This document shows positions 29,207-41,914 of a DNA stretch of 64,000 nt, piece by piece. The DNA is taken from contig OY775914.1 in the NCBI GenBank assembly GCA_963675215.1, positions 3,848,149 through 3,912,148 on the forward strand. The letters run 5' to 3'. This DNA is from Bacteroidales bacterium (GTDB taxonomy: Bacteria; Bacteroidota; Bacteroidia; Bacteroidales; GCA-2711565). The translations under genes were made by a program, and so were the position numbers. Every line of letters begins with the position of its first letter. Position 1 is the first letter of the stretch. Under the pieces are notes generated by a model. The model saw only the letters and a program-made list of their open reading frames with translations, was not told the origin of the DNA and made no database searches.

Positions 29207-29269
29207 GTCAAGTATATTTTTGATTTAATGGATAACGCTCAATAAATATTTTTATTTCTTTACAAAAAA

Positions 29270-39713: not shown

Positions 39714-39788
39714 GGTCTGGTAGTTCAGTCTGGTTAGAATACGTGCCTGTCACGCACGGGGTCGCGGGTTCGAGTCCCGTCCAGACCG
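39714..39788 (+). tRNA. tRNA-Asp (anticodon GUC)
   Basis: GGTCTGGTAGTTCAGTCTGGTTAGAATACGTGCCTGTCACGCACGGGGTCGCGGGTTCGAGTCCCGTCCAGACCG. The anticodon loop is CCTGTCACG, and the sequence is very close to E. coli tRNA-Asp. Confidence 0.93.
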
Positions 39789-39828
39789 CAAAAAAAGGTT
39801 CTTAATTGAAAAATTAAGAACCTTTTTT
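39789..39828. terminator. Bidirectional intrinsic terminator shared by tRNA-Asp (+) and cysK (-)
   Basis: A 13-bp perfect stem AAGGTTCTTAATT-gaaa-AATTAAGAACCTT, flanked by an A-run on the left and a T-run on the right. Confidence 0.75.
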
Positions 39829-39890: not shown

Positions 39891-40799
39891 TTATTCAAAC
39901 AATCCATTGACAGATAAGTACCGATCCCCTCTATCGTAAGAAACAGTAAGAATGATCTTACCTTTTATCTCATTCGCCATTTTTGAAATTGCAGCAAGTG
40001 AAGCTCCTGTTGAAATCCCTACAAATAATCCTTCCAATTTTGCAGCTTTTTTGCAAAATTCATACGCTTCTTCATTAGTAACCGCAATTGAATCATCGAT
40101 TACAGACAAATCCAGATTATCAGGGATGAAACCTGCTCCGATGCCTTGGATTGCATGAGGACCAGGAATCCCACCTCCAATCACATTTGAAGTAAAGGGT
40201 TCAACTGCGATAGTTTTAAGCTGAGGGAATTTCCTTTTTAGTGTTTTCGAAATCCCTGAAATATGCCCACCAGTTCCAACTCCTGTGATGAAATAATCAA
40301 TCCCTTGCTCAAAATCATGAATAATTTCAACCGCAGTTTTTTCAACATGAATTTGTGGATTCGCTTTGTTCTTAAATTGCATCGGCATCCAGGACGTTCC
40401 TTCCAATAATAATTCTTCCGCTTTCCGAATGGCACCATTCATCCCTTCAGTTTTTGGAGTTAGAACCAATTCTGCGCCATAAGCTTTCAATATGTTTCTC
40501 CTTTCTATCGACATTGAATCTGGCATCACCAGCACTAAATCATACCCTTTTACAGCTGCAACCATTGCGAGTCCAATTCCCGTATTTCCTGAGGTGGGCT
40601 CAATAATTCGCATTCCTTTTTTTAATATTTCTTCTTTTTCAGCAGCTTCAATCATGGCCAATGCAATTCGGTCTTTAATACTTCCTCCTGGATTTAGATG
40701 TTCCAGTTTTATCCACACATTCATTTCCTTATCGAATAGATTATTGATTTTCACAACCGGAGTATGTCCAATTGCTTTTAAAATATTTTCTGTTTTCAT
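39891..40799 (-). CDS. cysK: Cysteine synthase A (O-acetylserine sulfhydrylase)
   Basis: 302 aa with the PLP-lysine motif NPGGSIKDR, plus [10 protein letters not shown] and GTGGHISG. Confidence 0.92.
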
Positions 40800-40877: not shown

Positions 40878-41717
40878 TTAGATATAATAAATATTGTTTT
40901 TCTGTGGATTTAATTTATTCCCATTTTTTTGTTTGATTTGAACTTTATGACTATGTGTTACCAATGAGTTTGGAACAACACTTTCAACCACCCATACATT
41001 ACCTCCAATAACCGAATTTTTACCTACAATGGTATTCCCTCCTAAAATAGAAGCACCAGCATAAATGGTCACATGATCCTGAATATTGGGGTGGCGAACA
41101 CCTGTATTGTTTTTACTACTTACACTTAATGCTCCAATGGTTACCCCTTGATAAATCTTAACATGATTCCCAATTTTAGCCGTCTCACCAATAACAACAC
41201 CAGTACCATGATCAATCGAAAAAGAATGTCCGATTACAGCTGAAGGATGAATATCAATCCCTGTTTTACCATGTGCATATTCTGATATTATACGTGGGAT
41301 TAAGGGAACCTCTAGCAGATCAAGCTCATGGGCTAAACGATAAATGCAAATGGCCCAAAAGCCCGGATAAGAGAGCACCACTTCTTCAATGGATTTGGCT
41401 GCCGGATCACCCTCATATATCGCTTGAGCGTCTGTTAACAGCAAACTGTAAACTTCCGGAAGGCGATTCATAAAATGCCGACTAACATCTTGTGCTGTGT
41501 CTACATTATACCTCATCGGAATTAACAACTCAACTAATTGTTGTTGTATTTTCTCAAATTTCGATTCTGCCTTTTCGCAATGATTCTCTGAAAGCACAGG
41601 AAATAAAAACTTCGATAAATTTTCGGTAAAAGCAATGCTTTTGGTTACCGATGGCAACTTCCCTTTTACATTCTTCCGGAACTGCCCAATTTGATTAAAA
41701 AAATCTTTCTTATCCAT
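40878..41717 (-). CDS. cysE: Serine O-acetyltransferase
   Basis: 279 aa. An N-terminal helical domain is followed by left-handed beta-helix hexapeptide repeats (IDIHPSAVIGHSFSIDHGTGVVIGETAKIGNHVKIYQGVTIG). Confidence 0.88.
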   Translation of the reverse strand: MDKKDFFNQIGQFRKNVKGKLPSVTKSIAFTENLSKFLFPVLSENHCEKAESKFEKIQQQLVELLIPMRYNVDTAQDVSRHFMNRLPEVYSLLLTDAQAIYEGDPAAKSIEEVVLSYPGFWAICIYRLAHELDLLEVPLIPRIISEYAHGKTGIDIHPSAVIGHSFSIDHGTGVVIGETAKIGNHVKIYQGVTIGALSVSSKNNTGVRHPNIQDHVTIYAGASILGGNTIVGKNSVIGGNVWVVESVVPNSLVTHSHKVQIKQKNGNKLNPQKNNIYYI

Positions 41718-41731
41718 CTTATATTTTATTC

Positions 41732-41761
41732 AAAAAAAAAGACCCTGAATTTCAGGGCCTC
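41732..41761 (-). terminator. Strong intrinsic terminator 14 nt upstream of the cysE start codon
   Basis: The minus-strand RNA reads AGGCCCUGA-aau-UCAGGGUCU, followed by nine U. It lies about 155 nt after the M14 stop and immediately before the cysE ATG. Confidence 0.75.
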
Positions 41762-41794
41762 TAATAAATATTATGTTTAACTACAAAAATTACA

Positions 41795-41866
41795 TCATAT
41801 CATAACCCATCTTTTTATAAAAGGGTTCCAACAACAATAATAAAAATTTGGGTTGCTATTTTTCAT
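41795..41866 (-). promoter_or_regulatory. Candidate 23-codon leader peptide ORF with tandem Cys codons (MKNSNPNFYYCCWNPFIKRWVMI*)
   Basis: ATG at 41866-41864, TGT TGT at 41836-41831, TGA at 41797-41795. It lies between a promoter-like box and the terminator that precedes cysE-cysK. Confidence 0.35.
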
Positions 41867-41870
41867 CTCG

Positions 41871-41901
41871 CAAAATTAGGGTTATTTTTAATTCAAGCAA
41901 A
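41871..41901 (-). promoter_or_regulatory. Candidate Bacteroidota promoter (-33 TTTG, -7 TAATTTTG) for the cysE leader
   Basis: On the minus strand: TTTG (41901-41898), a 19-nt spacer, then TAATTTTG (41878-41871). Confidence 0.4.
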
Positions 41902-41914
41902 TGTTTATTTCAAA

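Follow-up and report, generated by a model that had tools for sequence, protein, structure and literature searches.

A candidate cysteine-sensing leader-peptide transcription attenuator upstream of cysE-cysK in a Bacteroidales lineage

The leader of the cysE-cysK operon in this Bacteroidales genome probably acts as a transcription attenuator of the ribosome-mediated, leader-peptide kind, with charged tRNA-Cys as the signal sensed. Within the window, by which we mean the whole 64-kb stretch of DNA that was analyzed, the leader lies on the minus strand, and all features below are given on that strand. It precedes cysE (serine O-acetyltransferase, 40878–41717) and cysK (cysteine synthase A, 39891–40799), the first and second regulated genes in the model. 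The cysE-like product matches TIGR01172 at 2.6e-46, which is under the curated cut-off, and its start codon was confirmed by homologues that align from residue 1; the cysK product matches TIGR01139 with 399 bits, over the cut-off. In the relatives, too, a PALP-family gene follows cysE. The gene upstream of the leader encodes an M14 peptidase (PF00246) and is located 150 nt upstream in the same direction. Each of the features that an earlier note had described for this leader was confirmed at its minus-strand coordinates. To our knowledge, the regulation of cysteine synthesis in Bacteroidota is largely uncharacterized, and the element offers a testable mechanism of cysteine regulation for one Bacteroidales lineage.

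Ten distinct relatives with a complete leader and cysE proteins of 57–85% identity were compared (L001, L161–L165, L167, L168, and L170); L166, a duplicate of L165, and L169, which is cut within the leader, were not counted. These closer relatives came from the protein database and contig look-ups, and a metagenome scan with cysE returned only relatives of at most 54% identity, none with the leader of this clade. Following the earlier note, we looked for loss of the short ORF or of its Cys codons in orthologous leaders, and all ten relatives were found to keep the ORF, the Cys run, and the terminator. The shared layout runs from a -7 box through 4 nt to an ATG and a 22–25-codon ORF with 2–4 consecutive Cys codons at codons 9–13 and a stop in a conserved block, ending in all complete relatives with a hairpin and T-run and then 9–22 nt to the cysE ATG. 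Across the clade, sequence conservation within the leader is highest in the block ATGATGTGATTTT..GTA..AAACATA.TATT. Between the window and L001 the conserved block differs at 2 of about 75 nt and the ORF at about 20 of 69 nt. The upstream gene is a co-directional M14 peptidase at five loci and a divergent ankyrin-repeat gene at four, and the element stays with cysE-cysK; because of the divergent orientation in these four loci, the hairpin cannot be the terminator of the upstream gene. The element is absent from most Bacteroidota cysE genes examined, and it was not found in Limibacter armeniacum, the one cultured organism checked.

The putative promoter, read from the sequence, is of the Bacteroidota sigma-A type and comprises a -33-like TTTG at 41901–41898, a 19-nt spacer, and the -7 box TAATTTTG (TAnnTTTG) at 41878–41871, as had been claimed. 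The -33-like TTTG is loosely conserved among the relatives, and the -33 element is weak across Bacteroidota (PMC6847099). The -7 box is kept, and a TAnnTT(G/A) box separated from the leader ATG by exactly 4 nt is found in all clade members and in L002, a Chlorobiota metagenome-assembled genome (MAG). In Flavobacterium johnsoniae the -7 box ends at -5, 4–5 nt from the transcription start (PMC6847099), and this published spacing predicts a leaderless leader ORF and a start of transcription at or beside the A of the ATG (41866). The nearly leaderless start had been listed as a weakness of the attenuator; it is instead an invariant feature, as the 4-nt gap in every member equals the published Bacteroidota distance from box to transcription start. 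Leaderless mRNAs are a minority of about 4–13% in the Bacteroidota studied. The invariant spacing suggests that the sensor ORF is placed at the very 5' end of the RNA, which parallels the mycobacterial case and bears on the synchrony of ribosome and polymerase. There is no room for another promoter, as also noted earlier, since the 14 nt from the T-run to the cysE ATG contain no -7 box.

The leader ORF (41866–41795) has 23 codons and a stop, encodes MKNSNPNFYYCCWNPFIKRWVMI, and carries TGT TGT, the proposed regulatory codons, at codons 11–12 (41836–41831), in agreement with the first reading of this locus. The motif TTGTTG is invariant in alignment A1, and the relatives have 2–4 consecutive Cys codons. 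The window leader has just two, and most relatives have three or four: the codon after TGT TGT is TGG in the window and L001, ATG in L163, and TGT or TGC in 7 of the 9 other complete leaders. Cys makes up 0.72% of the residues in the long ORFs of the window. Although the relatives show many substitutions, a 3-nt indel, and changes of frame in the 3' half of the ORF, where L162 and L165 read conserved nucleotides in another frame than the window, its length stays at 22–25 codons in every one of them; the conserved block around the leader stop carries stop codons in two frames. The leader peptides of the window and L001 differ at 10 of 23 residues, compared with 85% identity of the cysE proteins. 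As judged from these alignments, codon-like constraint is limited to the ORF start, the Cys run, and the position of the stop. The divergence of the peptide and the shifted 3'-half frame over conserved nucleotides fit a leader peptide and not a functional peptide. The latter explanation, in which the product would be a Cys-containing micropeptide with a function of its own, such as metal or redox activity, or the roughly 135-nt terminated RNA would act in trans, draws on the N-terminal pattern M-[KI]-N...N-[HY], which together with the Cys run is fairly conserved, and on peTrpL and rnTrpL of Sinorhizobium as examples of the trans functions that leader peptides and terminated RNAs can have elsewhere. 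It is, however, very improbable given that the C-terminal half lies in different frames among members, that only 13 of 23 residues are identical where the cysE proteins are so similar, and that the Anaerolineae leaders L065 and L148 are related by a frameshift just past the Cys run; moreover, a role in trans would be additional to attenuation and not a replacement for it.

The intrinsic terminator (41762–41732) is present with the T9 run and the 14-nt distance to the cysE ATG (41717) that had been reported, but the 9-bp GC-rich stem was not confirmed, there being 7–8 strong pairs extended to 11. The hairpin (41762–41738) comprises 11 pairs including G-U, with 5 G-C pairs and a loop of 3, and is followed by nine T ending at 41732. 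In alignment A3 (9 sequences) pairing holds in 98.9% of the terminator cells, and of the 10 pairs 3 have changed on both sides; the T-run after the hairpin consists of 7–10 T in the members of the Bacteroidales clade. The start codon of cysE is positioned outside the hairpin. These features bear on translational attenuation of the mycobacterial type, in which stalling would change the accessibility of the cysE start and the hairpin would block translation or stabilize the RNA. Although the closest experimentally proven Cys-sensing short ORFs are leaderless and act on translation, and although the hairpin lies just 14 nt from the cysE ATG, the T-run is the signature of an intrinsic terminator, the start codon is not sequestered in the hairpin, the phylum has no Shine-Dalgarno sequence to sequester, and the independent lineages L002 and L065/L148 likewise carry hairpin and T-run terminators, which together make a translational mechanism improbable. 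The absence of Shine-Dalgarno sites in the host phylum is taken from PMC6847099. Among the mycobacterial polycysteine leaderless short ORFs, Ms5788A acts by exposing the Shine-Dalgarno site of the gene that follows it (Canestrari et al. 2020, bioRxiv 10.1101/834739), and the earlier study, with predictions for Actinobacteria, emphasized that terminators were absent (Seliverstov et al. 2005, PMC1262725). The cysE leader resembles these short ORFs in being the first cistron of a cysteine-metabolism operon, in having at least two consecutive Cys codons, and in its predicted leaderless start, and the sensor proposed here, pausing of the ribosome at Cys codons, is the same. In contrast to them, it has a canonical intrinsic terminator in every member, belongs to another phylum, and shares no sequence similarity. 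If the proposed transcription attenuator is correct, classical attenuation gains cysteine with an intrinsic terminator, earlier sensing of Cys by leader ORFs being mycobacterial, translational, and terminator-less.

Folding of the leader with ribosome masks predicts a 1:2/2:3/3:4 attenuator in which the short antiterminator is the weakest link. Segment 1 (AACCCA, 41854–41849) is the predicted partner of the core of segment 2 (UGGGUU, 41809–41804) when there is no stalled ribosome, and segment 2 has two alternative partners, segment 1 and the terminator 5' arm, pairing with the latter forming the antiterminator. The GGCCC core of segment 3 (41759–41755) in the terminator 5' arm is thus the partner of segment 2 in the antiterminator or of segment 4 in the terminator. 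Enclosed by the antiterminator is an inner A/U-rich hairpin (41802–41762), whose 5' arm contains the leader stop UGA (41797–41795). When a ribosome mask was placed on the Cys codons, all 10 complete clade sequences were predicted to fold GGG:CCC closing the stop-codon hairpin, with helices of 3–6 bp, and when the mask was placed at the stop codon this antiterminator fold was lost. The GGGUU:GGCCC contact pointed out in the earlier note is thereby predicted in every clade member, with a matched three-way change in L164. In this member segment 2 and both the 5' and 3' arms have changed together, and the cognate duplex has an energy of -7.6 kcal/mol compared with -2.1 to -4.7 kcal/mol with foreign arms; this compensatory change represents one evolutionary event. 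Covariation of the antiterminator was scored by a duplex cross-matrix, as column-wise counting was dropped because the short helix shifts register between members, with the GGG aligned one column apart. The GGG at segment 2 (GGAG in L164) is conserved as nucleotides in all members and is read in differing frames. The UGA is found 6–11 nt past the GGG core within the 5' arm of the inner hairpin, and the leader stop always falls within the same conserved block, whatever the frame.

The caution that the antiterminator is short was justified, as it has 5 pairs in the window, two of them G-U, and in the window the antiterminator with the inner hairpin amounts to about -10 kcal/mol compared with -14 kcal/mol for the terminator. 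The fold check that had been proposed gave a mixed outcome: mutually exclusive antiterminator and terminator structures are predicted under the ribosome masks, whereas shuffle support in the window and recovery by RNAalifold were lacking. In the shuffle test of upstream pairing of the 5' arm, neither the window (0.44 compared with 0.38 in shuffles) nor most clade members were significant; significance was reached in L002 and L164, with L163 and L148 borderline, and in no others. RNAalifold on the MAFFT alignment recovered the terminator and nothing else. A further hairpin suggested earlier, between AACCCUUUU (41827–41819) and AGAUGGGUU (41812–41804), is correct in its positions but not conserved, AACCC being absent from the relatives, and a ribosome stalled on the Cys codons would cover most of the AACCCUUUU segment. 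In folding without a ribosome, segment 2 is paired upstream with a probability of 0.70 in the window (minimum free energy and ensemble) and of 0.32–0.92 in the relatives. The pairing of segment 1 in the window is not conserved; the relatives pair ORF codons 4–9 with the block just past the stop, in a helix that favors its own partner (permutation fraction 0.0008) and is weak in the window (-2.8 kcal/mol).

In the proposed mechanism, transcription would begin from the TAATTTTG promoter with the first nucleotide at or beside the A of the leader AUG, and the 23-codon ORF would therefore be translated from a leaderless 5' end. With plentiful cysteine, the ribosome would pass both Cys codons and reach the UGA, where it would hide segment 2 and the 5' arm of the inner hairpin, allowing the terminator with its U9 to fold and transcription to end 14 nt short of cysE. 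When Cys-tRNA is scarce, the ribosome would stall at codons 11–12 and cover the mRNA only to about nt 47, taking segment 1 away as a partner and leaving segment 2 free. The free segment 2, stacked on the inner hairpin, would then pair with GGCCC in the 5' arm of the terminator while the 3' arm is still to be transcribed, and RNA polymerase would continue into cysE-cysK. Without translation, segment 1 would pair with segment 2 and termination would again be the default. The weakness of the predicted antiterminator leaves some room for a different agent, and the stop-to-terminator block is more conserved than its weak A/U hairpin seems to require, as would be expected of a target for a trans-acting RNA-binding protein or of a small-molecule-binding RNA fold (for cysteine, O-acetylserine, or sulfide) that controls termination, with the ORF incidental or auxiliary. 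This is nevertheless unlikely. No member has lost the ORF, the spacing of its start, the Cys run, or the position of the stop; two lineages without such a block in their leaders also have Cys runs; and for a ligand-binding fold this large one would expect more G+C and more covariation. Rfam scans also gave no family match: at the gathering thresholds no family (riboswitch, T-box, or leader) was reached in the window, L002, L065, L164, or L165, and in a permissive scan of the leader region the best match was Phe_leader, at 21.1 bits compared with a gathering threshold of 55 and with E = 4.4.

The trpL, hisL, pheL, thrL, leuL, and ilvL leaders of E. coli and Salmonella are the classical leader-peptide transcription attenuators of amino-acid operons. 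The cysE leader resembles the trpL/hisL class in its tandem codons for the end product within a short ORF, its predicted 1:2, 2:3, and 3:4 pairings with a U-run, a stop placed such that a terminating ribosome would occlude segment 2, and its position directly before biosynthetic genes. It differs in that it would sense cysteine, in that its start is predicted to be leaderless and not of the Shine-Dalgarno type, and in its unusually short and A/U-rich antiterminator; there is no sequence or Rfam relationship with this class. In Bacillus subtilis cysE-cysS is under a T-box(Cys), and sulfur genes in Firmicutes are under S-box/SAM riboswitches. These systems likewise rely on early termination upstream of cysteine-pathway genes that is relieved at low charged tRNA or end product, but they sense uncharged tRNA or SAM directly by structured RNA without translation, and no T-box or riboswitch match is present here. 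Among Bacteroidota, the reported leader-peptide attenuators are a Bacteroidetes tryptophan leader and the his and ilv leaders of Flavobacterium psychrophilum (PMC9723704 and supplement). The cysE leader shares with them the phylum, the promoter type, a short ORF rich in the regulatory amino acid, a terminator hairpin, and a biosynthetic operon; unlike it, they respond to Trp, His, or Ile, PMC9723704 lists none for cysteine, and the published his and ilv leader transcripts open with a 5' untranslated stretch. No terminator-based leader-peptide attenuator for cysteine was found in the literature searched, and the sequence evidence gives good support to the cysE leader being a new Cys-specific leader-peptide transcription attenuator without an Rfam family. 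The alignment and covariance model from this analysis could seed such a family and flag cysE-cysK operons in metagenome-assembled genomes as cysteine-regulated.

Comparable arrangements were found outside the clade. L002 has a Cys-run ORF (MIKWEKMNCCCCFCYH...) and a terminator before cysE and a PALP-family gene, with a clear predicted 8-bp antiterminator (GAAAGGGU:GCCCUUUC), and its 5' arm was paired upstream more often than in 100 of 100 shuffles. The Anaerolineae loci L065 and L148 have the leader MLAVHVCC[VI]CCSDGTC... and 14-bp terminators, also before cysE and a PALP-family gene. The leaders of L002 and of L065/L148 are unrelated in sequence to those of the clade, and their upstream genes are divergent and unrelated. 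It is conceivable, if doubtful, that leaderless Cys-run ORFs are a recurring and readily evolved device for cysteine sensing and arose independently in Bacteroidota, where they would be coupled to terminators, in Chloroflexota (L065 and L148), and in Actinomycetota, where they are coupled to translation, that the Bacteroidales lineage might also have a "Cys ribulon" of several sulfur operons like the mycobacterial one, and that the leader RNA could act in trans.

The least probable explanation is coincidence, in which the hairpin would terminate the peptidase gene or a separate small RNA, the CC ORF would have arisen by chance in an A+T-rich spacer, and expression of cysE would depend on constitutive read-through or an unrecognized promoter. 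Chance would fit with the A+T-rich nature of the TGT codon in a genome of 35% G+C, with the roughly 20 copies of TGTTGT on each strand of the window, and with the nearby co-directional peptidase gene. Against this, the element persists where the upstream gene is divergent, the ORF and Cys run are kept in all relatives down to 57% cysE identity, the short interval before cysE lacks a -7 box, and the pattern is strongly enriched upstream of cysE. The pattern, defined as an ATG-started 8–45-codon ORF with CC that ends 0–100 nt ahead of a strong terminator, has a single occurrence in the window with both strands counted, and 12 occurrences in 1.86 Mb of fetched sequence, with 10 of the 12 directly upstream of cysE. 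About 0.05 occurrences are expected in the cysE-upstream space, with a chance of about 1.6e-5 for at least three independent lineages. In a set of 92 cysE loci whose upstream gap measures 60 nt or more, a Cys-run ORF is present at 4 of the 6 that have a terminator no more than 60 nt from the ATG, compared with 3 of the 86 without (Fisher p 1.8e-4; 1.6e-3 when collapsed to lineages). In L058, L059, and L078, CC ORFs some 310 nt ahead of cysE were dropped, as they lie inside a long upstream coding gene. The terminator-less CC ORFs in L029, L061, L111, and L171 match the chance expectation of about 2–3 per 80 loci.

An earlier note had proposed that cysE-cysK in the window is preceded by a short leader ORF with Cys codons and an intrinsic terminator, and a reading of the minus strand from 41930 to 41700 recovers all elements of that proposal in place. 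On this strand, a -33-like TTTG (41901-41898) is separated by a 19-nt spacer from the -7 box TAATTTTG (41878-41871), which lies 4 nt before the ATG (41866) of a 23-codon ORF that ends at 41795, encodes MKNSNPNFYYCCWNPFIKRWVMI and contains the tandem Cys codons TGT TGT (41836-41831). The terminator hairpin (41762-41738, minus strand) has 11 pairs including G-U, five of them G-C, and a loop of 3, and its run of nine T ends at 41732, 14 nt ahead of the cysE ATG at 41717. The first downstream gene matches TIGR01172 (serine O-acetyltransferase; 2.6e-46, under the curated cut-off) and the second is cysteine synthase A (TIGR01139, 399 bits, over the cut-off), and the gene upstream of the leader carries a Peptidase_M14 domain. 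An Rfam scan of the spacer returned no family, the top score being 21 bits for Phe_leader against a threshold of 55. On the opposite strand, a tRNA-Asp (GTC; 39714-39789, plus strand) lies between cysK and a dimethylargininase-like gene, and a tRNA occupies the equivalent position and relative orientation in the related locus L165.

The window has a G+C content of 35%, with TGTTGT occurring about 20 times per strand, and Cys makes up only 0.72% of the residues in its long ORFs. Taken as one pattern, an ORF of 8-45 codons that starts with ATG, contains Cys-Cys and stops 0-100 nt before a strong hairpin plus T-run occurs once in the 64-kb window with both strands counted. In the 1.86 Mb of sequence gathered for the comparison it occurs 12 times, 10 of them directly before a cysE homologue; by coincidence, about 0.05 would be expected in cysE-upstream space, at the rate given by the two occurrences elsewhere.

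When genomes and metagenomes were scanned with the cysE protein, 160 loci were found, including a sole close relative, L001, a Bacteroidales MAG with a cysE 85% identical to that of the window. Intermediate relatives (57-77% identity) were taken from the protein database and their DNA obtained through contig look-ups. The complete-leader set comprises the window, L001, L161, L162, L163, L164, L165, L167, L168, and L170; a duplicate of L165 (L166) and a locus cut inside the leader (L169) lie outside it. The earlier note had asked whether relatives keep the Cys-run ORF and terminator, and all 10 complete leaders do, each with a TAnnTT(G/A) box followed by exactly 4 nt and ATG, an ORF of 22-25 codons with two to four consecutive Cys codons at codons 9-13, a stop codon within a conserved block, and a hairpin whose run of 7-10 T is separated from the cysE ATG by 9-22 nt. 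Sample leader peptides of this clade are MKNRYRNFNHCCWMTSLKGWVMI, MITKNLNHNNCCCMRHQNGWGYELM, MKNAIQNHSNCCCPLIFIRWSI, and MIHIKKNTYCCCCTQSAWGGVCI. Upstream of the leader, five loci have an M14 peptidase gene on the same strand and four have an ankyrin-repeat gene that is divergent, and because this neighbour varies the hairpin goes with cysE-cysK rather than with the upstream gene. The element is absent from Limibacter (cysE 55% identical) and from most other Bacteroidota cysE loci examined. In the Bacteroidota loci L058, L059, and L078, a long ORF on the same strand ends 8-12 nt before the start of cysE, which is therefore an internal operon gene without its own leader.

Between the window and L001, 10 of the 23 leader-peptide residues have changed, despite the 85% identity of their cysE proteins. 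In the 3' half of the ORF the nucleotides are conserved and the reading frame differs among members: most read GGATGGG in the frame ..TGG.., L162 reads it as ATG-GGT, and L165 is put out of frame relative to the window by a 1-nt indel. The block ATGATGTGA (in the window ATGATGTAA, 41801-41791, minus strand; with flanks TATGATGTAAT) contains overlapping stop codons in two frames, and the ORF end is therefore fixed even when indels shift the frame. Of the ORF, only the start, Cys run, and stop position behave as codons do, a pattern of constraint that is the signature of a regulatory leader peptide and not of a functional peptide.

The terminator is well supported by the alignment, with 98.9% of cells paired and both sides changed in 3 of 10 pairs. 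Each leader was folded up to the terminator loop without a ribosome, with a mask at the Cys codons, and with a mask at the stop codon. Segment 2 has the core UGGGUU (41809-41804, minus strand), and in the 5' arm of the terminator a CCC core lies within GGCCC (41759-41755, minus strand). Without a ribosome, segment 2 is predicted to pair upstream into the ORF (P 0.70 in the window, 0.32-0.92 in the relatives). With the Cys codons masked, it is predicted to pair with the 5'-arm CCC core in every clade member, enclosing a long A/U-rich hairpin that has the leader stop codon in its 5' arm, and with the stop codon masked this antiterminator fold is predicted to be impossible, leaving the terminator alone. 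The upstream helix of the relatives joins ORF codons 4-9 to the post-stop GAUUUUGGU block and favours cognate partners (permutation fraction 0.0008, somewhat inflated by relatedness); it is weak in the window, with AACCCA:UGGGUU in its place. L164 shows a joint change of the 5' arm (GGCUCUG), 3' arm (CAGAGCC), and segment 2 (GGAGC), and its cognate duplex is predicted at -7.6 kcal/mol versus -2.1 to -4.7 with foreign arms. The antiterminator predicted for the clade is short, as the earlier note had said of its own candidate pairing: apart from the inner hairpin it has no more than 3-6 bp. Per-sequence shuffle tests of 5'-arm pairing were mostly not significant, and the RNAalifold consensus recovers the terminator alone. 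The features listed in the earlier note are confirmed and its reading of them is supported: the element is probably a ribosome-mediated transcription attenuator that senses Cys. The remaining share of probability is divided among control at the level of translation, action of a trans-acting factor or ligand on the conserved block, a function of the peptide or RNA itself, and coincidence.

In Flavobacterium johnsoniae, the -7 element spans -12 to -5, with 4-5 nt to the start site in bona fide promoters (PMC6847099). Because the distance from box to leader ATG, exactly 4 nt in all clade members and in the more distant locus L002, matches this spacing, +1 is predicted on the A of AUG, giving a putatively leaderless start. 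Since leaderless transcripts make up only a minority of the mRNAs in the Bacteroidota studied (~4-13%), the invariant spacing looks selected. Within the window, a TAHHTTTG box 4-5 nt before an ATG is found only at the leader ORF, a 5-codon ORF at 29228, and a 239-codon ORF (28412-27693, minus strand), the last being a candidate for leaderless expression of a full-length protein.

L002 (2847-2982), labelled a Chlorobiota MAG and with a cysE 54% identical, has TATTTTTG-catc-ATG upstream of cysE, a leader ORF MIKWEKMNCCCCFCYHLTERVLFFHC with four consecutive Cys codons and a fifth (MIKWEKMNCCCCFCYH...), and a terminator 19 nt before cysE. The Bacteroidales-clade covariance model matches it at full length (41.7 bits, rough E 3e-4), and for this reason the L002 leader may share a distant ancestry with that of the clade instead of having arisen independently. 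In the Anaerolineae (Chloroflexota) loci L065 (2804-2964) and L148 (5-161), the leader MLAVHVCC[VI]CCSDGTC... is unrelated to that of the clade. Past the Cys run the two are offset by a frameshift, and a terminator of 14 bp stands just before cysE; the arrangement suggests that another phylum has a cysteine attenuator parallel to this one. The three-part topology is also predicted in L002, L065, and L148, and L002 has the clearest set of alternatives among all loci examined, with an 8-bp antiterminator helix that beats 100/100 shuffles. Both lineages have a PALP-family (cysK-like) gene downstream of cysE, and each has a divergent, unrelated gene upstream (GH123 in one, hydantoinase in the other). 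In the 92 loci whose upstream gap is 60 nt or more, a Cys-run ORF is present in 4/6 with a terminator at most 60 nt from the cysE ATG versus 3/86 without (Fisher p 1.8e-4; 1.6e-3 with loci collapsed to lineages).

Leader-peptide attenuators of trp, his, and ilv have been reported in Bacteroidota (PMC9723704 and supplement), and Cys-run leader ORFs "without obvious terminators" have been predicted in Actinobacteria (PMC1262725). In Mycobacterium smegmatis such ORFs were shown to be leaderless sensors whose effect is to unmask a Shine-Dalgarno site (bioRxiv 10.1101/834739), a translational description still current in 2026. The full-text literature searched, whose coverage excludes most subscription journals, yielded no cysteine leader or attenuator that is terminator-based or from Bacteroidota. 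The window element would share its working mode with trp/his-type attenuators. With the mycobacterial elements it would have in common the sensing of cysteine and, probably, a leaderless start, but not their defining translational, terminator-less action. On these grounds it is placed among the classical leader-peptide transcription attenuators as a new member specific for Cys, distinguished by its predicted leaderless start. The attenuation principle is textbook; what is new, and easy to test, is its keying to cysteine, its occurrence in this phylum, its predicted leaderless design, and the recurrence of such elements in other phyla.

Two further loci carry short ORFs. In L171 (1314-1376), a 20-codon ORF, MRNYALHTIHFSKYCPYCCS, precedes a cysE homologue of 56% identity by ~125 nt, has no recognisable terminator or -7 box, and could be due to chance or be a different, possibly translational, Cys sensor. 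L145 has, from ~150 to 30 nt upstream of its cysE homologue, TTATTTTG-gatc-ATG and a 6-codon ORF (MAARIA) with zero Cys codons, followed by a 9-bp terminator-like hairpin 32 nt before the gene start, and is a terminator-containing leader with a logic other than Cys codons.
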